From the sequence record MH706966: 54,655 nucleotides of DNA, one strand, 5' to 3'. Made by a program: the position numbers and the translations under genes. The DNA comes from Enterobacteria phage mEp021. Positions 2,418 to 54,378 of the stretch are shown piece by piece. Position 1 is the stretch's first letter. Each line of letters opens with the position of its first letter. Under the pieces are notes generated by a model that was not told the origin of the DNA, ran no database searches, and saw nothing but the letters and a program-made list of their open reading frames with translations.

Positions 2418-2849
2418 TTATTGCCCCCAGCGTTTTATAAATTCCTCGTTCAACTTAGTGTCACCAGACCATTGAACATTATGTTCAGCGCCGAACGAGT
2501 AGATCAGTTCGATTAGTTCGCTAAATTCTGCTTTACTCATCCGGCTGGTTGACGTACCCAGCACAACAAAACCTGATTTATCCAGGTTAGGGACAACGCC
2601 ATATTTCTTAAGTCCGGCAGTAAATACCGCCTTCCAGTCTTCCGGCGACAGCTTTTTTCCGTACCAATTAACCTGATCGCTAATGTCGGTTAACAGCGCC
2701 CATAAAAGGCTATTTTGACTAAGCGAGCGGGTTTTCTCCTGGATGGTAATTATCAGCGGGCTTTTGCTATCAGACTGGATCTCTCTTATCTGCCTGATAG
2801 CGTTTTCTTTTACGGCGTCGTTTACTATTTCAAATCTAATTTGCCTCAT
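2418..2849 (-). CDS. ninB: NinB-like recombination protein
   Basis: 143 aa; resemblance to the lambda NinB (Orf) family as recalled; sits in a nin-like context next to a methyltransferase. Confidence 0.65.
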   Translation of the reverse strand: MRQIRFEIVNDAVKENAIRQIREIQSDSKSPLIITIQEKTRSLSQNSLLWALLTDISDQVNWYGKKLSPEDWKAVFTAGLKKYGVVPNLDKSGFVVLGTSTSRMSKAEFSELIELIYSFGAEHNVQWSGDTKLNEEFIKRWGQ

Positions 2850-3573
2850 GGTTAGATAACGCCTCGTTTATTCTATTTGATGCAATTTCGAAATATTTTT
2901 CATCCTTTTCTATGCCGATAAAACGTCGGTTAGTATTAATGCAGGCAACGCCTGTAGTTCCGCTGCCCATAGTAAAATCGAGAACCGTTTCCCCTTCGTT
3001 AGTGTATGTCTTAATTAGGTATTCCATCAGTGCGACAGGCTTTTGTGTTGGGTGTACCTTGCCTTTCTGGTTTGCGTTACTTATCTCTATAATGCTTTTA
3101 GGGTGCTTATCCTTATAAGTCCTTAAATCACCATAATTAATTATGCGGTTTGCCTCCCCAGCAGAATATGTTTTACCCGTCCTTTCCTTTTGCGGAGTTT
3201 TTATTGGGTAATATTTGACAGCGCCTTTAGAAAAAACAACAACATCCTCATGCACCCTATAAGGTTGCCATTTGAGGACTTGCATGTTACCGCCTTTCTT
3301 CTTGTCCCATACCCAGCAATATTTAAACATGCTTATGTTGCTTGCAATTAGTGTTGTAGTGAACGGCTGACTTGCAGTCATCACAATGGCGCAATTCGGC
3401 TTAACTATGCGCTTTAATTGCTCCCACATTGGATTAAGAGGAATGACGGAATCCCATTTGCAGGCCGTTGTGCCGTAAGGCGGATCAGCCATTACCATAT
3501 CAACGCTACCGCCTGGGATAGAGTTCATGACCTCCAGACAATCACCCAACAATAATGTAACATCTTTATTCAT
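2836..3573 (-). CDS. DNA methyltransferase, N6-adenine or N4-cytosine type
   Basis: 245 aa; DPPY catalytic motif (MADPPYGT) near the N-terminus and AdoMet motif FTMGSGTTGVA near the C-terminus (motif IV before motif I). Confidence 0.75.
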   Translation of the reverse strand: MNKDVTLLLGDCLEVMNSIPGGSVDMVMADPPYGTTACKWDSVIPLNPMWEQLKRIVKPNCAIVMTASQPFTTTLIASNISMFKYCWVWDKKKGGNMQVLKWQPYRVHEDVVVFSKGAVKYYPIKTPQKERTGKTYSAGEANRIINYGDLRTYKDKHPKSIIEISNANQKGKVHPTQKPVALMEYLIKTYTNEGETVLDFTMGSGTTGVACINTNRRFIGIEKDEKYFEIASNRINEALSNHEAN

Positions 3574-45957: not shown

Positions 45958-46524
45958 GTGAACTGGTCTGAATTGTTTGTTTATGATGAAGATTCTCCTT
46001 CATGTTTAAGGTGGAAAGTCACCGCTAACAGCAGAACGGCGAGGACTGGCGATGCGGCAGGAAAAATAGTAGCGGCAAAAAGCGGCAATAAGTACTGGAA
46101 AATCACATGGAAGGGCCGTCGCTATTATGCTCACCGGATTGTTTACGAATTATGCAGTGGCAGAAAATTAAAACGCAGTGAGATCATCGATCACATTGAT
46201 GGTAATGGGCTTAATAATAAATTCAATAACATACGCGTAACAGATAAAAAAGGTAACGCCAGAAATATGACCATAGGTCGCGCGACAAGGGAGAGCGGAT
46301 TGCCATTTGGGATATGTTGGCACGCAGAAGGGAGATCTATTAGAGCACGTATCACCGCTGATAACGACAAAAGAGTTAGTAAATCATTTAGCGTTATAGC
46401 GTGCGGTGGACTTGAAATGGCTATTAATGCCGCCGTCGCGTGGCGGTCATTCATGATTGAAGAGCTAAATAAAGCTGGCGCAGGATACACGAAATTACAC
46501 GAAACAGGGGGTTTATATGTCTAG
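45958..46524 (+). CDS. HNH homing endonuclease with AP2-like domain, inserted between I and J
   Basis: 188 aa; SEIIDHIDGNGLNNKFNNIRVTDKKGNARN HNH motif; GTG start with SD aggggg; paralog of 6080-6586. Confidence 0.7.
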   Translation: MNWSELFVYDEDSPSCLRWKVTANSRTARTGDAAGKIVAAKSGNKYWKITWKGRRYYAHRIVYELCSGRKLKRSEIIDHIDGNGLNNKFNNIRVTDKKGNARNMTIGRATRESGLPFGICWHAEGRSIRARITADNDKRVSKSFSVIACGGLEMAINAAVAWRSFMIEELNKAGAGYTKLHETGGLYV

Positions 46525-49500
46525 TGGCGGCGGTAAAGCAAAAACGCCAACTTTGCTTAATGATAATTTGTTTCATAAACAATTTTATCGGGTTTTAGAT
46601 ATTCTAAGTGAAGGACCAATTTTTGGAGTAGTTAACCAAACAGCGCCATTAAACAGCGTAATGCTTAATGACACGCCTATCACTGACGCAAGCGGAAACA
46701 CATCAGTCCCTGGCGTTAGCTTAGCGTGGCGTAATGGTACGGCTGACCAGTCACCAATCAACGGCTTCAACGCTATTGAGTCAACCGTTATTGTCAACGC
46801 AAAAGTAACTCACGACACACCAATAATCAGGACCATTTCAGATCCCAACGTTAACCGCGTAAGGCTGAATCTTGGCGTTGACTCTTTGGTAAGGTCAGAT
46901 GACAAGGGCAATCAATACAATACATCCGTTATGTTGATGGTTGATGTCAAACCTTCATCGTCATCAACGTGGTCACTGGTTAAAGATATTACTATTGGCC
47001 CAGGCAAACAAAGCGGTGAGTATCTAGAAGCCCACATTATCAACGCGCCGGATGAAAAACCGTTTGATATTCGCGTTCGTCGCGTAACGCCAGACAGCAC
47101 GGGAGATCTTCTTCACAATGATACCAGGTGGAGCAGTTACAGCGAGATAATCGATGATAATTTGTCTTATCCCCATACCGCTGTTGCTGGCGCGGTAATT
47201 GACCACGATCAGTATACTGATACGCCTACCCGCACCTATCATCTGCGTGGGCTGATTGTTGATGTTCCTGATAACTACGACCCGGAAACGCGCACGTATT
47301 CAGGATTATGGCTTGGTGGCTTTAAAAAGGCGTATACCAATAACCCTGCATGGCTTTTCCGGTATCTGGTTAAAAATGAACGTTTCGGGCTTGCCCGTCA
47401 TGCTGGTTACATTGATGTTGACGACGGCGCATTATATACGCTTTCTCAATACTGCGACCAGTTGGTTAGCGACGGATACGGCGGCTTTGAACCTCGCATG
47501 ACGCTTAATGCTTACATCACGGAGCAAATGAGCGCACGCGACTTACTTGATAACATTGCAGGCATGTTCCGTGGTATCGCGTTATGGGACGGGCAACGCC
47601 TTACCGTGATGATTGATGCACCACAAGATCCGATCGCCACCATTACAAATGCAAACGTCGTTGATGGCGCGTTTACTCGTTCAAGTATTGCCCGCGCAGA
47701 ATCTTACAACGCCGTGATTGTGTCATGGACTGACCCAGAAAACGGCTGGGAGCAATCAAAAGAATACGTGGCAGATGATGAATTGATCGCCCGCGACGGT
47801 TATAACGAAACAACGCTAGAGGCGTTCGGTTGCACGTCACGCGGGCAAGCGTACCGCGCTGGCAAATGGCTGATAGAAACGGCAAAACGCGAGCCATCAA
47901 AATTCACGTTTAAAATGGCCCGTGACGCAATTCACTTCACCCCCGGGGATATTATCGAGATACTCGACAATAACCGCGCTGGCGCTCGTTTAGGCGGCCG
48001 CATCGTGGCGAACAGTGGGAAGGTGATAACGGTAGACAAGGTTGATTCTGAATATATCGCGGCTGGTGACACTATCAGTTTACTTGATAGTGATGGCAAG
48101 TTTAAAAAACACCAGATCACCGGAGTTAACGGAAACAACATCACCCTTGCAACCGCCCCCGCATGGATTCGTAACGGGACCGTATTCGCTGTGTCAACTG
48201 AAGCGGCAAAACCTGTTCTGTGTCGAATTATCAGCGTAGCAGAAACAGAAAATAACAGCGTGTACACCATCGAGGCAGCACAACATGACCCACACAAACA
48301 GGCTGTAGTTGATGAAGGCGCAATCTTCGAGGTAAACAACGACACGCTTAATCACTTCCGCGTGCCGAACATTGAAAATCTGAAGGTGTTAAACGTTGGT
48401 TCTGAAACTGTTCAATGTCGCGCTACATGGGAAACACAGACGACAACGCATCGCCTGACCTTTGAAATACGCGTATATAACGCCGAAGGCCGCGTGGTGG
48501 CAGCTTATGAAACAACGAATTACCGCTATGATTTTTATGGCCTCGATGCTGGCAGCTACACACTTGGTATTCGCGGTCGTAATGACACTGGCATGAAGGG
48601 GGCGGAAAGTATTGTTGACCTGGTTATTGGCGCGCCAGCGGCCCCAATTGGAGTTAATTGGGTTCCCGGCGTTTTCCAGGCAACAGTATACCCGATCAGC
48701 AAAACAACACTGACAACTGATACAGCATACGAGTTCTATTTCTCAGGTGAAAATCAGATCACTGACCCATCAAAAGTAACAACTTTGGCGCAGTTTACCG
48801 GGCGCGGCTATCAGTGGACTTTTGGCGGAATGAACACGGGCCATACCTATTACGTTTATGTCCGCACACGTAACGCTTTTGGTGTGTCAGATTTCGTTGA
48901 GTCATCAGGAAAACCAACTGAAAACTTCGATGAAATTAGCGACTACGTCACCAAAGACGTGATTAACTCAGAACAGTTTAAAGGGATGATTAGCGACATT
49001 AAAGATCTTGGCGACCGCGCCGACCTTATCGAAAGCGCTACAAATGACCTTAAAACTGCTACCGACAACCTCAAAACTGCAACTGATAACCTGACAAACA
49101 TCACTGACGATTTAATGGTTGACACTGACAACCTGACAAACATCACTGACGAATTGAGGACTGATACGGACGGCTTAATCACAGAAACAGGGGCCATAAA
49201 AGCTGATACGGACACACTGAAAAAACAAACGGAAGATCTTTATAAAAAGGTTGGGGAAAACGCCGATGATATTGGACAGCATGAGGCAAGAATAGATTCA
49301 CTGGAGGTATCTAGCGAAAAAGTTGGCAGTGAACTTGCGCAAGCAAAAGCAAGCCTGCAAAACGCGTCATTGGCGCTTATCAATAACTCACTTGCACAGA
49401 CTAACACTCGCGTAACTCTTACCGCTCAGTATAAGAAAGGCAGGACAGAGACGAAGGCTGAAATTGACCGTATTGACAACGTTATTGCTGAAGAGAAAAA

Positions 49501-51700
49501 GGCAACGGCTGAATCACTGGAAACCATCACGGCAGAAATGAACACGATGGATTCTAACCTTAAAGGTCAGATCTCAAGCGTGGAACGCGCAGTGGCTGAC
49601 GAGGCCAGCGCACGCGCAGAAGCCATTAACGGTGTGAACGCATCAATAAGCAATCTAGACAAGAAAACAGACGCCAGCATCAATAGACTTGATCAAGCTA
49701 TTGCAGACGAAACGAACGCCCGCACACAGGCAGTCAGTGACGTTAACGCGAGTATCTCATCGCTAGACAAGAAAACTGACGCCAGCGTTAAACGCTTGGA
49801 TCAAGCAATTGCAGACGAAACCAGTGCAAGAACTGAAGCTATCAGCGGCGTGAACGCATCAATTTCCACTCTTGATAGCAAGGTAACAAGCAATGTAACG
49901 CGCATAGATAAAGCTATTGCAGACGAAACGAAGGCACGCACTGACGCAATCAGCGGCGTTAATGCAAGTATTAGCACACTCGAAGGCAACACCAATTCAG
50001 AAGTGAAACGCCTTGATCAAGCAATAGCTGACGAGACTAGTGCCCGCACACAGGCTATCAGCGGTGTAAATGCTTCGATAAGCAATCTTGAAAGCAAAAC
50101 TGACGCGAGCGTTTCCCGTCTTGATAAAGCAATATCAGATGAAACGCAGGCAAGAAGTGCCGCAATAACAGAGGTTAAAGCTGATTTGTCAACGCTCGAA
50201 AATAGCACAAACGCCAGCGTTAAACGCCTTGATCAGGCGATTGCCGACGAATCAAGCGCACGCGCTGAAGCAATATCGGGCATCAACGCAGAGATTGGCA
50301 ACATTGAAAATAATGTTGACAAAAACAGCGATGATATAAATCAGACAAAAGCAAGCCTGCAAAACGCGTCTATCGCGCTTATTAACAACTCAATCGCTCA
50401 AACAAACACGCGTGTTACGCTTACGGCCCAATACAAGAAAGGCCGCAAAGAAACCAACGCGCAAATTGACCGTATTGACAATGTTATCGCTGAAGAGAAA
50501 AAGGCTACAGCGGAAGCGGTTAGCGTGGTAAAAGCATCGATCACGGATCTTGATAAGAAGACTGACGCGAGTGTTTCCCGTCTCGACAAGGCTATCGCAG
50601 ACGAAACAAGCGCACGCAGCGAGGCTATTAGCGGAGTAAATGCCTCAGTGTCAGCGCTAGACAAGAAAACGGATTCAAACATAAGCCGTCTTGATAAAGC
50701 CATTGCAGATGAGACAAGCGCAAGAACTGAAGCTATCAGTGGAGTGAATGCAAGTATTATCACTCTTGAAAGCAACACTGAATCTGAAGTTGGCAGGCTG
50801 GATCAGGCAATTGCCGACGAATCAAGTGCCCGCGCCCAGGCTATAAGCGGAGTGAACGCATCAATTTCCACTCTTGATAGTAAGGTGACAAGTAACGTAA
50901 CCCGTATTGATAAGGCTATTGCAGACGAAACGAAGGCACGCACTGACGCGATAAGTAGCCTTAATTCATCGCTTACCAGTACGATTAATTCGAAAGTGTC
51001 TGAAGTATCAACGGCACTTTCTACGCATGAAGCATCAAGCGCTGAAAAATTTAGCCAGATCTCTGCGTCTTTCGAATCTGTAAACTCAAGTATTACAGAA
51101 TGGTCACAATCTATGGCAACGGCTGACGAGGCATTGTCAACCAAAATTGATCAGTTAACAGTAACCGTTAACGGTAACAAAACGGCGATCGAGACGACAT
51201 CGAATGCGCTAACCGATTTCAAGGGTAACGTTGATGCGTCATATTCAATCAAGCTCGCCACCGATAACAACGGCATGAAGTACGCGACAGGTATGTCGCT
51301 TGGCCTGACTGGTAACGGCACAAACTTTCAATCGCAGTGTATTTTCCTCGTTGACCGCTTCGTGTTAATGACCTCAGCAAACGGCACATATACAACACCT
51401 TTCTATGTCACCAATGGTGCGATGTATGTGAAAGAAGCGTTTATTAAAGACGGATCGATCGATACTGCAAAAATAGCGCAGCAAATCCAGTCAACTGTAT
51501 TTGTTCAAGACTCAAAAGGTTGGATGATTAACAAAGATGGATGGGCGCAATTCAACGAAGTTACTGTAAGGGGTAACGTCATTGTTAAAGGCAATCAAAA
51601 TTTCGATGTACGCAATAGTGACGGACGGGTAATTATTAACAATAATGGCATTACAGTAAATCTTCCTAGTGGTGGTAAAATTATTATCGGTGTTTGGTAA
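46517..51700 (+). CDS. J: Central tail fibre / host specificity protein J, expanded by internal repeats
   Basis: 1727 aa; N-terminal about 800 aa parallels lambda J as recalled; about 13 copies of a 33-aa repeat in the centre; lambda-J-like distal region retained. Confidence 0.9.
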   Translation: MSSGGGKAKTPTLLNDNLFHKQFYRVLDILSEGPIFGVVNQTAPLNSVMLNDTPITDASGNTSVPGVSLAWRNGTADQSPINGFNAIESTVIVNAKVTHDTPIIRTISDPNVNRVRLNLGVDSLVRSDDKGNQYNTSVMLMVDVKPSSSSTWSLVKDITIGPGKQSGEYLEAHIINAPDEKPFDIRVRRVTPDSTGDLLHNDTRWSSYSEIIDDNLSYPHTAVAGAVIDHDQYTDTPTRTYHLRGLIVDVPDNYDPETRTYSGLWLGGFKKAYTNNPAWLFRYLVKNERFGLARHAGYIDVDDGALYTLSQYCDQLVSDGYGGFEPRMTLNAYITEQMSARDLLDNIAGMFRGIALWDGQRLTVMIDAPQDPIATITNANVVDGAFTRSSIARAESYNAVIVSWTDPENGWEQSKEYVADDELIARDGYNETTLEAFGCTSRGQAYRAGKWLIETAKREPSKFTFKMARDAIHFTPGDIIEILDNNRAGARLGGRIVANSGKVITVDKVDSEYIAAGDTISLLDSDGKFKKHQITGVNGNNITLATAPAWIRNGTVFAVSTEAAKPVLCRIISVAETENNSVYTIEAAQHDPHKQAVVDEGAIFEVNNDTLNHFRVPNIENLKVLNVGSETVQCRATWETQTTTHRLTFEIRVYNAEGRVVAAYETTNYRYDFYGLDAGSYTLGIRGRNDTGMKGAESIVDLVIGAPAAPIGVNWVPGVFQATVYPISKTTLTTDTAYEFYFSGENQITDPSKVTTLAQFTGRGYQWTFGGMNTGHTYYVYVRTRNAFGVSDFVESSGKPTENFDEISDYVTKDVINSEQFKGMISDIKDLGDRADLIESATNDLKTATDNLKTATDNLTNITDDLMVDTDNLTNITDELRTDTDGLITETGAIKADTDTLKKQTEDLYKKVGENADDIGQHEARIDSLEVSSEKVGSELAQAKASLQNASLALINNSLAQTNTRVTLTAQYKKGRTETKAEIDRIDNVIAEEKKATAESLETITAEMNTMDSNLKGQISSVERAVADEASARAEAINGVNASISNLDKKTDASINRLDQAIADETNARTQAVSDVNASISSLDKKTDASVKRLDQAIADETSARTEAISGVNASISTLDSKVTSNVTRIDKAIADETKARTDAISGVNASISTLEGNTNSEVKRLDQAIADETSARTQAISGVNASISNLESKTDASVSRLDKAISDETQARSAAITEVKADLSTLENSTNASVKRLDQAIADESSARAEAISGINAEIGNIENNVDKNSDDINQTKASLQNASIALINNSIAQTNTRVTLTAQYKKGRKETNAQIDRIDNVIAEEKKATAEAVSVVKASITDLDKKTDASVSRLDKAIADETSARSEAISGVNASVSALDKKTDSNISRLDKAIADETSARTEAISGVNASIITLESNTESEVGRLDQAIADESSARAQAISGVNASISTLDSKVTSNVTRIDKAIADETKARTDAISSLNSSLTSTINSKVSEVSTALSTHEASSAEKFSQISASFESVNSSITEWSQSMATADEALSTKIDQLTVTVNGNKTAIETTSNALTDFKGNVDASYSIKLATDNNGMKYATGMSLGLTGNGTNFQSQCIFLVDRFVLMTSANGTYTTPFYVTNGAMYVKEAFIKDGSIDTAKIAQQIQSTVFVQDSKGWMINKDGWAQFNEVTVRGNVIVKGNQNFDVRNSDGRVIINNNGITVNLPSGGKIIIGVW
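49560..50960 (+). repeat. Coding tandem repeats within J (about 99-bp units) plus a roughly 1-kb segmental duplication
   Basis: Repeat unit ...DASVxRLDxAIADETSARTEAISGVNASISxLDxKT...; the linker gcaagcctgcaaaacgcgtc... occurs at about 49345 and again at about 50350. Confidence 0.8.
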
Positions 51701-51740
51701 CCACTGTTGCCCCGCCAAATGGTTGGGGCAACTAATTTTA

Positions 51741-52685
51741 TTAATAAATTACTGGCAAATAAGGAAGATTCATACCTATACAGAAATCCGGCCTGTTACC
51801 TATTTCATACCTGACAATCCTTGATCCTGTTCCGCTTTTCACCTGCCCGTTGTACATCATAATGCCTTTGTATCTTAGTTCCTTGTATGCTGATATAGCT
51901 CTAGTATTAAAGCCGCATCTCAATATTGGGAAGAACGCGTCACCTATTGTCTGGTAACTATTCGATAACGCTATAAATCCCTTAACAACCAATGGCCTTT
52001 GTTTTGTTGAAAACACGCATTGATTATTTTTATTAATGATGGTTATTCCGTCGCCAGGTGATGGCGGTGATTTGCTAAAAATAGCCAAATTCATCGTTAC
52101 CGATCCATATGTGTCACCAGTTGCAGAAGTGTTTGTGTTTGTACAGATCAATTTATTGTTTCCGTCAAACTCAACTGAAACACCGCTATTGCTCCAGTTA
52201 CCGAAAGGAACACCGGCAACTGGCATAGTGTAAGAACCATTAAAGCTAACACTCCCAACCCATAAACATGACATCAATGTATCGTTAGTCGTTATCGATG
52301 CAAAATCTGTGCTATCTGCAACTAATATACCCTCACCAGTAGACGCCTTTGCTATCTCAAACACGCTACCGCTAAAATTAGTGATCCTATCAGAATATGC
52401 GTTCTCACCACTAATTGAAATCCTTGCCGTGCCACCAGAAGCACTAAAGCCTGATATAAAATATGTTTCAACACCCCTGTCAAGCTCAAACGCGTAAGCG
52501 CCTACCTTTGGGATTAGAAACTTATCGCCGCCAGTTAAATCCTTTATGGAAAAACTTTGCGAAAACCCAGCATTTTGAATATTGAAATCTCCAGCGTGTG
52601 AGAACGCACGCAACCCGCTTGTTATTTCCATTGCAGGGCGTCCGTCATTCAGCCCAATATATATACCCGCCCCCATTAGTACCAC
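51741..52685 (-). CDS. Hypothetical Gly/Ser/Thr/Asn-rich protein (314 aa), opposite strand after J
   Basis: Long ORF; beta-rich composition; no motif recognised. Confidence 0.5.
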   Translation of the reverse strand: MVLMGAGIYIGLNDGRPAMEITSGLRAFSHAGDFNIQNAGFSQSFSIKDLTGGDKFLIPKVGAYAFELDRGVETYFISGFSASGGTARISISGENAYSDRITNFSGSVFEIAKASTGEGILVADSTDFASITTNDTLMSCLWVGSVSFNGSYTMPVAGVPFGNWSNSGVSVEFDGNNKLICTNTNTSATGDTYGSVTMNLAIFSKSPPSPGDGITIINKNNQCVFSTKQRPLVVKGFIALSNSYQTIGDAFFPILRCGFNTRAISAYKELRYKGIMMYNGQVKSGTGSRIVRYEIGNRPDFCIGMNLPYLPVIY

Positions 52686-52894
52686 TCCTTACTTCCGCAA
52701 TCTCTAGTCTTGCCACTATGACCATCAGTGCCATCATAAACGCGACAGATCTCACCGGACGGAACCTTAGCCCCGTCAACCCATCTTTCATAGCAGACAC
52801 CGTATGCGCTAGTTGCACAATGGCCGTTGTGTCGATTAGTGTCAGCGCAACCAACCAGAATAGCCGCAACAGCGATAATTGTTACCATTTTCAT
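52676..52894 (-). CDS. Small Cys-rich lipoprotein (72 aa), moron
   Basis: MKMVTIIAVAAILVGCADTN... signal peptide with lipobox LVGC; six Cys; SD ggggtg. Confidence 0.55.
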   Translation of the reverse strand: MKMVTIIAVAAILVGCADTNRHNGHCATSAYGVCYERWVDGAKVPSGEICRVYDGTDGHSGKTRDCGSKEWY

Positions 52895-53028
52895 TAGTAC
52901 ACCCCACTCAGATTGTGTGTATTTGTTGCTTTGTTTATTATAATATACATTTTGTATAAGCATAAAATGCAACATAGATCACAAAATGGTAGAATTATTC
53001 CGTTAATTAACATAATGGAGTCATTGCG

Positions 53029-54378
53029 ATGATTTACACAACTGGAACAATTGCCATCAATGGCAACACTGTTACAGGCACGGGTACAAACTTTTCCGCG
53101 CCGCTTTCTCTCATTCGTGTAGGTTGCACGCTCATTACCATCGGCAATCCGGTGCAGATCTTTACCATCACAGAAAGGCCCAGCGGTACTGAACTGTCAG
53201 TAACGCCAGCGGCTAACCCTGCGATCCCCGCCGGAACAAAATTTAGCATTCTGCTTTCTGACTCGATCTCAGTAGATGGTCTTGCTCAGGACGTAGCTGA
53301 AACGCTGCGTTACTACCAGGGTAAGGAAACTGAAATTGCAGAAGCAATTGAATTTTTCCATGAATTTGATTTCAATGCACTTACAACGCTGGCTAACCAG
53401 GTTCACACTGATTCAGCGCAAGTAAGCGCAGATAAAGCGATAGTTCAGCAATATAAAACAGATTCCGAATCAGCCAAATCAGCAGCAGAAGCTGCAAAAG
53501 GTCAGGCGGTGTTAGCTCAAACCGCCGCAGAGACAGCTAATACCAACGCGCAAGCCGCCAGCACTGCAGCGCAGGGATTTTGCGATCGGGCCGAAGAATG
53601 GGCGCAAAGCGTAAACCCCGACAACCTGCTAACTAAAGCCGGCAACCTGGCAGGGTTGACAGATAAATCGGCGGCGAGGTCCAATCTTGGGGTTGGAGAT
53701 AATAGTTTAGTTAAGTTAGGTGCGCTGCACCTGAATGGTGGTGAGTCATTAGTGTTAAGGGGCGCAGAGTCTAACGAGTTAAGGTTGTCAAACTCTTTAT
53801 ACGGGGCTGATAGCTGGGTTGGGATGACGATGCATAAGTGGTACGAGGATTGGACGCGGGCTGGCTTGGTAAGGGGAGGTGGTACCAAATTATCAGACTA
53901 CCGCATCCATGTGTGGAAAGATGGTATATCTGATGCTTTATTCCGATTTTTGCCCGACCAAAGGCTTATTAGCGGCAACAGTGACAACCCGGCGGTTAAC
54001 GAGTTCCAGAAAGCGCCGCTATCGGACCGCGACCATAAAAAAGAAATCCAATACACGGACGGCGAGGAAAGCTACAACCGCGTTCGCCAATGGCTTCCGG
54101 TAATGTTTAAGTATAAAGAGTCGGATGTACAGCGATACGGCCTTATCGCGCAGGACCTGGTAAGGATTGACCCGGAATACGTGCATTTGCTGCCGGGCTA
54201 CGCCATCTATGAGGACGTCAAGGGGGTGGACGAGGAAGGGAACGAGGTAGTAGTAGACCGGAAGGAGATCGGGTATACAGACGATGTGCTGTCTCTAGAC
54301 AGTAATGTGCTGTTGATGGATCTGTGTGCCGCCTTCGTTCATCTGTTGCATAAAGTGGAGAAGCTGGAAGGTAAGTAA
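53029..54378 (+). CDS. Side tail fibre protein with C-terminal intramolecular-chaperone (S74-like) domain
   Basis: 449 aa; N-terminal MIYTTGTIAINGNTVTGTGTNF; Ala/Gln-rich coiled-coil centre; C-terminal ...YGLIAQDL... segment typical of autoproteolytic chaperone domains. Confidence 0.7.
   Translation: MIYTTGTIAINGNTVTGTGTNFSAPLSLIRVGCTLITIGNPVQIFTITERPSGTELSVTPAANPAIPAGTKFSILLSDSISVDGLAQDVAETLRYYQGKETEIAEAIEFFHEFDFNALTTLANQVHTDSAQVSADKAIVQQYKTDSESAKSAAEAAKGQAVLAQTAAETANTNAQAASTAAQGFCDRAEEWAQSVNPDNLLTKAGNLAGLTDKSAARSNLGVGDNSLVKLGALHLNGGESLVLRGAESNELRLSNSLYGADSWVGMTMHKWYEDWTRAGLVRGGGTKLSDYRIHVWKDGISDALFRFLPDQRLISGNSDNPAVNEFQKAPLSDRDHKKEIQYTDGEESYNRVRQWLPVMFKYKESDVQRYGLIAQDLVRIDPEYVHLLPGYAIYEDVKGVDEEGNEVVVDRKEIGYTDDVLSLDSNVLLMDLCAAFVHLLHKVEKLEGK

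Follow-up and report, generated by a model that had tools for sequence, protein, structure and literature searches.

A probable LptD-type receptor-binding and superinfection-exclusion module beside gene J of the temperate phage mEp021

Between gene J and the tail-fibre gene of Enterobacteria phage mEp021 lie two genes that run against their neighbours, one encoding a small lipoprotein, Lpp021 (gp81), and the other a 311-aa protein, and the question raised by this locus is what such a pair does for a temperate phage. The mEpimmI group of temperate phages, which are Nus-dependent and non-lambdoid, has mEp021 as its archetype (PMC11893012), and the window analysed here is the whole 54,655-nt stretch of sequence record MH706966. 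Both genes are on the minus strand, between J (46517-51700, plus strand, 1727 aa) and a 449-aa tail-fibre gene (53029-54378, plus strand). A preliminary description of the window had placed two open reading frames (ORFs) here and likened them to conversion genes of the lom/cor type; they prove to be real genes, with Pfam matches to DUF6453 (E 1.6e-104) for the larger product and to PF24052 Phage_lipoprotein (E 5.6e-31) for the smaller, and they diverge from the fibre gene, as described, and converge on J. What that description missed is that the two form one functional unit, a receptor binder with a blocker of the same receptor. The best explanation of the pair is a ‘bona fide RBP locus’ (RBP, receptor-binding protein) as known from Drexlerviridae, Dhillonvirus and Queuovirinae, here in a temperate phage, and we put the probability that it is specifically an LptD-type RBP and superinfection-exclusion module at about three in four.

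The 311-aa protein, which starts MGAGIYIGLNDGRP, matches DUF6453 over profile positions 1-290 of 291. It aligns without a gap to Rtp44 of phage Rtp over 311 of 311 residues (63.7% identity, E 3e-150) and to bas01_0028 of AugustePiccard (Bas01) with 64% identity and 100% coverage, and by sequence it also matches PDB chain 9rpt_C, the RBP of Oekolampad on LptDE (E 8.9e-46). The structure prediction proposed in the preliminary description led to the same family: the AlphaFold2 (AF2) model is all-beta (mean per-residue confidence, pLDDT, 82.6; global confidence, pTM, 0.84), and when it was compared with the PDB by Foldseek (E<=0.001), 9rpt_C was the sole match (E 4e-17, TM 0.72/0.88, root-mean-square deviation 2.8 A, 21% identity in the structural alignment). 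Members of the LptD RBP family are defined by more than 30% identity over more than 99% coverage (bioRxiv 10.64898/2026.04.02.716166), a range into which the 311-aa protein falls easily, and accepted LptD binders share as little as 33% identity (PMC12685063). By family, as judged from sequence, the protein is thus a tail-tip RBP of the LptD-targeting small siphoviruses and not a conversion gene product, and it would be expected in the virion. Its earlier portrayal as Gly/Ser/Thr-rich and beta-rich with no clear signal peptide agrees with a G+S+T content of 30%, with the model and with a highest 19-residue Kyte-Doolittle mean of 0.89, at which neither a signal peptide nor a membrane segment is seen. 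The length of 314 aa given at that time corresponds to the longest form of the ORF, from a GTG at 52685; the homologues and the annotation of phage mEp515 place the start three codons later, at ATG 52676, giving 311 aa.

Conservation is uneven along this protein. The N-terminus is its most conserved part, with M1, G4, I7, D11, G12, M16, I18, T19 and G21 invariant; it is poorly predicted in isolation (pLDDT 57-61) and may be the tail-proximal part that is disordered in the Oekolampad cryo-electron microscopy map. Towards the other end, the segment SRIVRYEIGNRPD is almost unchanged in comparison with Bas01 and Rtp44, and its counterpart in the Oekolampad RBP is the stretch expected to hold Gln299, the printed alignment stopping at residue 292. 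Gln299 is reported to contact extracellular loop 4 (EL4) of LptD (PMC12685063).

The smaller gene encodes a typical lipoprotein precursor beginning MKMVTIIAVAAILVGC, with an MK n-region, a hydrophobic core and a single lipobox, LVGC, at residues 13-16, in agreement with the signal noted in the preliminary description; the mature protein would have a mass of 6.3 kDa. Under the rule of the Lol pathway, lipoproteins without Asp at position +2 are sorted to the outer membrane. Lpp021 has Ala at +2 after the lipidated Cys, and so shows both the lipobox and the lack of Asp at +2 that characterize Rtp45-type proteins. It is 49% identical to Rtp45 (E 4e-24) and matches PDB chain 9rps_D, Rtp45 in complex with LptDE (E 1.6e-18). 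Where six cysteines had been claimed we count five (16, 26, 34, 50 and 66): Cys26 and Cys34 align with the Cys30-Cys38 disulfide of Rtp45, and Cys50 and Cys66, which could form a second disulfide, are extra cysteines specific to a prophage-type clade of the lipoprotein. The segment CATSAY aligns with the Rtp45 strand CATQAS, which pairs with LptD beta6. A 99-aa form starting at ATG 52975, as annotated in mEp515, was rejected, as it would add 27 polar residues before the signal peptide, the homologues and the mEp021 annotation start MKMV, and the candidate -10 hexamer of the gene (Table 1) would be located downstream of such a start. A 95-aa form of the lipoprotein occurs in one protein cluster, and in both long forms the gene call has probably been extended too far.

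Exclusion by this exact lipoprotein is already on record. The product is 100% identical to the ‘putative lipoprotein’ of Enterobacteria phage mEp021, the published forward primer for Lpp021 matches the ATG at 52894, and Lpp021 expressed from a plasmid (pLpp021) excludes mEp021 and mEp515 (PMC11893012), which bears out the earlier guess of an outer-membrane exclusion lipoprotein. Lpp021 is no relative of Cor, Lom or Llp, and the larger protein, which belongs to an RBP family, is not a conversion gene product. Readings of the pair as Cor, Llp, Lom or Bor were rejected for want of homology, and PADLOC defence-system models contained no family matching either protein. A lipoprotein acting like Cor or Llp would inactivate a TonB-dependent transporter such as FhuA and have nothing to do with its neighbour. 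We judge this the least probable of the explanations considered, and one with which the sequence data conflict: it draws on the position after J, which is that of cor in T1, N15 and phi80, and on a weak match to the Cor family PHROG 1119 (E 0.0094), but that match is confined to residues 1-31, the signal peptide. A PDB sequence search with E values up to 1 returned Rtp45 alone and no Llp, Llp structures being present in the PDB according to PMC9586334 and PMC12685063. In addition, the proteins of the T1 locus are all different (ST32, ST31 and Cor), and the mEp021 lipoprotein gene is translationally coupled to an RBP gene.

The arrangement of the two genes is itself characteristic. In small siphoviruses, ‘bona fide RBP loci’ directly downstream of gpJ encode a non-covalently attached RBP and its cognate exclusion protein, and the allelic type of the locus predicts the receptor (PMC8594841). 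Resistance mutations to Bas01 map to lptD (PMC8594841), and the LptD link of the Rtp/Bas01 type was confirmed by Black et al. (PMC13035648) and Dunbar et al. (PMC12685063); the RBPs of Rtp and Bas01 are 96% identical (PMC12685063). We found the order lipoprotein then RBP, convergent with J, in Rtp, vB_EcoS-12210I, phiEB49, pSf-1, AKS96, Ioannina and the LSU61 prophage, most of them with the same 1-nt overlap between the two genes, and in Rtp and vB_EcoS-12210I the AAGGAGTGG..TAATG junction is like that of mEp021. Among phage records, 436 match the RBP family and 380 the lipoprotein family, mostly virulent small siphoviruses of Escherichia, Shigella and Klebsiella. By megablast this variant of the module is present in only 3 of 5426 complete E. 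coli genomes, and two of the three, WCHEC025970 and LSU61, are also in the list of the mEpimmI paper. The relatives closest to the mEp type, on large E. coli contigs and therefore in prophages, form clades of their own, with 81-94% identity for the RBP and 70-81% for the lipoprotein. Neither mEp021 nor mEp515 is in the receptor-prediction supplementary tables of the 2026 preprint.

This distribution bears on a different view of the pair, in which both genes are lysogenic-conversion ‘morons’ of the lom, bor or cor type and the larger product is a membrane or host-takeover protein. The larger protein does match PHROG 1265, labelled ‘membrane protein; moron’; the pair is opposite to the late operon, with its own hairpin and candidate -10, and in LSU61 it is near the prophage end, next to mppA; and a lipoprotein made by the lysogen would count as a conversion factor. 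The PHROG label, though, is unsupported by the sequence of a protein that lacks a signal peptide and a membrane segment, and a member of its family has been solved as a tail RBP bound to the receptor. Strictly virulent Drexlerviridae have the same opposite-strand arrangement, so that orientation is uninformative on expression in lysogens, while the DUF6453 gene is co-directional with J and directly after it in Salmonella phage FSL SP-016, and inside the tail gene cluster in AidaStucki_Bas93. We consider the moron interpretation highly improbable.

If the 311-aa protein is a tail-tip RBP, it needs a place on the tail, and the C-terminus of J may offer one. The last ~30 residues of mEp021 J (…INNNGITVNLPSGGKIIIGVW), with the motif INxNGITVNLPxGG..V.G.W, are kept in the J proteins of all nine other DUF6453 carriers examined (a second mEpimmI prophage, members of three Drexlerviridae subfamilies, a Seuratvirus, a Dhillonvirus and a Salmonella phage; at least six taxa). 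T1, whose locus is of the FhuA type, has a J that matches Rtp J with 58% identity as far as the motif but lacks the motif itself. In the LamB-dependent phage mEp010, J diverges exactly at the motif and continues for ~124 extra C-terminal residues, there is no RBP gene, and the lipoprotein, Lpp010, is unrelated. Among the J proteins compared, the motif was found only in those preceding DUF6453, and we infer that the J tail and the conserved RBP N-terminus form a non-covalent attachment site. The length of J itself varies, from 1727 aa in mEp021 to 1393 aa in mEp515 and 1144 aa in the LSU61 prophage, through a variable count of coiled-coil-like repeats (RLDQAIADETSAR..AISGVNASIS.L..K) at ~49300-50900, where Tandem Repeats Finder reports a 108-nt period and long spurious minus-strand ORFs occur.

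The Oekolampad RBP inserts into the open state of LptDE, and both binding and infection are lost through point mutations in EL4 and EL11; Rtp45 acts from the periplasmic side, between LptE and LptM, and lifts EL4 by up to 20 A, blocking RBP binding (PMC12685063). Rtp45 and the Oekolampad exclusion protein are only 35% identical, yet belong to one family, and AlphaFold3 models of complexes of Rtp45-type lipoproteins with LptDE are reported to be wrong by the authors of that study (PMC12685063). By homology, the receptor of mEp021 is predicted to be the LptDE translocon.

Several observations weigh against this prediction or the module reading built on it, or lend them no support. The sole receptor experiment on mEp021 and mEp515 indicates OmpA and not LptD: the Keio ompA deletion cuts both phages to ~10^2 PFU/mL (plaque-forming units), a strong but incomplete reduction of plating, and leaves LamB-type relatives unaffected (PMC11893012). 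A dependence on OmpA is unusual for an LptD-type module. The differences between the OmpA and LamB groups of mEp phages are confined to the RBP and lipoprotein, to the final 23 residues of J and to the distal lateral fibre, so the RBP, as one of these few parts, could be the OmpA determinant, and 36% of its residues differ from those of Rtp44. A fusion of three copies of the last 45 J residues with the RBP, joined by GS linkers and modelled by AF2 with a paired alignment of 10 phages, gave no confident docking (mean pLDDT 56.7; 21-42 over the J tails and the RBP N-terminus, and 21-39 in the J tails). Mass spectrometry identified 16 virion proteins in mEp021 (PMC11893012), and the accessible text of that paper does not say whether the 311-aa protein is included. 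Lastly, a sigma-70 consensus scan of 51500-53200 found no promoter in the 52895-53028 spacer, with hits at the level expected from shuffles.

The alternative suggested by these data is that the same module has been retargeted, with the DUF6453 protein binding OmpA, Lpp021 blocking the OmpA route or a later step, and LptD unused, or that the RBP itself requires both receptors. Beyond the plating defect, Lpp021 excludes exactly the two OmpA-dependent phages, and the separate mEp-type clades, with Cys50 and Cys66 added in the lipoprotein, would be in keeping with a changed target. On the other side, the RBP shares its gap-free 64% identity with RBPs of phages whose resistance maps to lptD, far above the lowest value among accepted LptD binders, and its C-terminal loop SRIVRYEIGNRPD is near-identical to those of Bas01 and Rtp44. 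The hairpin of Rtp45 goes in between LptE and LptM and needs the wide lumen that the 26 strands of the LptD barrel enclose. The OmpA barrel, with 8 strands, is narrow and offers nothing comparable, so a lipoprotein this close to Rtp45 is unlikely to act on OmpA in the Rtp45 manner. Moreover, infection is not abolished by the loss of OmpA. We regard retargeting as unlikely; if true, this RBP family and its periplasmic blocker would for the first time be seen to act on a small barrel of 8 strands, and exclusion would have to work otherwise than by the Rtp45 lumen wedge.

The LptD homology and the OmpA experiment are compatible if OmpA is an additional requirement. Because lptD is essential, a screen of Keio mutants could not have revealed LptD; some plating remains without OmpA; and there is a precedent in Bas01, whose RBP is the nearest relative to have been characterized and which needs NupG through a J domain and LptD through its RBP (bioRxiv 10.64898/2026.04.02.716166). 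By analogy, OmpA would be required as a second factor, or earlier, or in an auxiliary role. Another candidate for the OmpA effect is the distal lateral fibre (53356-54378), which differs between the OmpA and LamB groups. In the published account (PMC11893012) the receptor-binding domain is taken to be the variable C-terminus of J, neither LptD nor Rtp is named, and there is no discussion of the 311-aa gene; our LptD reading conflicts with, or extends, its assignment of OmpA as receptor and J as RBP.

Taking the pair as an LptD-type module, we propose the following course of events. The two genes would be transcribed as one unit and translationally coupled. The RBP, a soluble all-beta protein made in the cytoplasm, would join the tail tip non-covalently, its conserved N-terminus on the C-terminal tail of J, and its distal loops would enter the extracellular mouth of the receptor, leading to irreversible adsorption and commitment to DNA delivery. 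The lipoprotein, meanwhile, would be exported, lipidated at Cys16 and sorted to the inner leaflet, the periplasmic face, of the outer membrane, where, judging from its homology to Rtp45, its hairpin would wedge into the periplasmic side of the receptor and push an extracellular loop into a shape incompatible with the RBP. A receptor locked in this way would protect the infected or lysogenic cell from superinfection and keep progeny from being lost on cell debris.

Comparison with known systems places mEp021 closest to Rtp and AugustePiccard/Bas01 (Drexlerviridae, Braunvirinae), whose loci are near-identical. They share with mEp021 the 311-aa RBP, the lipoprotein with its disulfide cysteines kept, the gene order and junction convergent with J, and a J ending NGITVNLPxGG...G. 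Unlike them, mEp021 is a temperate, Nus-dependent phage, its 1727-aa J has a long coiled-coil repeat insert, its lipoprotein has two extra cysteines, and its reported receptor is OmpA, as opposed to LptD and NupG for Bas01 and a predicted use of LptD for Rtp. The structurally characterized systems are the RBP and superinfection-exclusion protein of Oekolampad/Bas18 (9rpt, 9rpw and 9rqi) and the Rtp45-LptDE complex (9rps). The mEp021 RBP has the same fold as the Oekolampad RBP (TM 0.88 on the target) and presumably the same mechanism, with the RBP going into an LptD barrel in the open state and EL4 being shifted from underneath by the lipoprotein. Rtp44 is a closer relative of the mEp021 RBP than the Oekolampad type is, the latter being ~10 residues longer and having a different C-terminal loop.

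Two further systems follow a similar logic with other components. In T5, the monomeric RBP pb5 at the tip of the central fibre and the adjacent gene for Llp, a small periplasmic outer-membrane lipoprotein, target FhuA, and the receptor is blocked from the inside; no sequence similarity to Llp was detected, and Llp acts by long-range allostery in a TonB-dependent transporter, whereas the Rtp45 type displaces a loop. Cor of T1, N15 and phi80 is likewise a small superinfection-exclusion lipoprotein with its gene placed after J, but it has no sequence relation beyond the signal peptide, the accompanying proteins are different, and the J of T1 lacks the C-terminal motif. Within the mEpimmI group, the type-C lipoprotein Lpp010 of the LamB-dependent phages is the positional counterpart of Lpp021, encoded on the same strand between J and the lateral fibre gene, with exclusion shown by experiment. 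Lpp010 (82 aa) is unrelated to Lpp021 (23.6% identity, E 0.02), and its locus differs as described above. It reportedly excludes lambda too (PMC11893012), and according to Maffei et al. the phages that use TolC and LamB show the same pattern as mEp010 (PMC8594841).

Coordinates of the genes and signals of the locus are collected in Table 1. The region is 99.9% identical to that of mEp515. A distance of 40 nt separates the J stop codon from that of the RBP gene, and the intervening hairpin folds with -19 kcal/mol (z -3.38; 0 of 200 shuffles as stable). It was revealed by folding, a terminator consensus scan of 51500-53200 having missed it, and it is probably a terminator; terminators are annotated at the same position downstream of J in mEp010 and AKS96. 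At the other end of the pair, the TATAAT hexamer, which lacks a good -35 and was not reported by the consensus scan, is the sole promoter-like element seen upstream of the lipoprotein gene and a weak candidate for the promoter of the operon; the swapped module has its right-hand edge at this hexamer, and from ~52940 the sequence again resembles that of the LamB-type mEp phages. We propose that the lipoprotein and RBP genes form one minus-strand operon with the lipoprotein gene first, overlapping the RBP start by 1 nt, and the RBP translationally coupled through the TAATG overlap.

Table 1. Genes and sequence signals of the lipoprotein-RBP locus of mEp021 (positions in the window)
Feature	Coordinates	Strand	Basis or remark
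J 3' end, last 31 codons and stop, DVRNSDGRVIINNNGITVNLPSGGKIIIGVW	51605..51700	+	putative docking tail for a separate RBP
GC-rich hairpin, then UAAUUUUAUU on the plus strand	51706..51732		between the convergent J and RBP genes; probably terminator
RBP gene, 311 aa, 33.3 kDa, DUF6453	51741..52676	-	Pfam, Rtp44, Bas01 and 9rpt_C matches
Lipoprotein gene Lpp021 (gp81), precursor 72 aa, mature 57 aa	52676..52894	-	PF24052, Rtp45, published primer
Shine-Dalgarno AAGGAG for the RBP gene, inside the 3' end of the lipoprotein gene	52685..52690	-	read from sequence
TAATG stop/start overlap, lipoprotein gene into RBP gene	52674-52678	-	read from sequence
TATAAT -10 hexamer, perfect, ~43 nt upstream of the lipoprotein ATG	52937..52942	-	candidate promoter, weak evidence

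Among the neighbours, the lateral tail fibre has a C-terminal Peptidase_S74 intramolecular chaperone domain. Its first 109 aa are 93% identical to mEp010, and the remainder matches lateral fibres of Dhillonvirus and Drexlerviridae (JL1, SSL-2009a, BF9 and SH6) with 62-85% identity, so that the whole host-recognition cassette looks exchanged with virulent small siphoviruses. On the far side of J, between it and the gene for tail assembly protein I, is an ORF for a 188-aa HNH endonuclease (45958-46524, plus strand; PF13392 E 1.6e-9, PHROG 99 E 4.8e-34), also present in mEp515 and annotated there as hypothetical.

Outside the loci of the usual type, the DUF6453 gene of Salmonella phage FSL SP-016 is followed by an HK022-like tail fibre gene and has no lipoprotein gene annotated beside it, and the J of that phage keeps the C-terminal motif. 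A distant DUF6453 homologue (24-28% identity) is found in Kuravirus-like podoviruses (AidaStucki_Bas93, ES17, SU10, NJ01 and Bas87), at 2501-3520 in Bas93, the one podovirus locus inspected, and a distant PF24052 lipoprotein homologue (38-45% identity) is encoded elsewhere in their genomes. These homologues hint at a use of LptD, or of a similar pair of receptor and blocker, by phages other than siphoviruses.

While the module type and the exclusion by Lpp021 were already known, the membership of the mEp021 pair, from a group of temperate phages, in the LptD type is new. We found no report of an LptD-type host-recognition cassette in a temperate coliphage, and the mEpimmI prophage group is common in the human gut. 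For annotation, a protein labelled ‘hypothetical’ or ‘membrane protein/moron’ becomes an RBP, and the J C-terminus becomes its putative docking site instead of the receptor-binding domain assumed in the mEpimmI paper. The LptD reading disagrees, in a falsifiable way, with the published receptor assignment; on this reading OmpA would become a co-requirement, comparable to NupG in the case of Bas01. Virulent and temperate siphoviruses appear to exchange the J tip, the RBP, the lipoprotein and the lateral fibre as one cassette. Should lysogens express the lipoprotein, the prophage would hold an extracellular loop of the essential lipopolysaccharide exporter in an altered position, with possible consequences for envelope physiology and for cross-resistance to therapeutic phages that target LptD.

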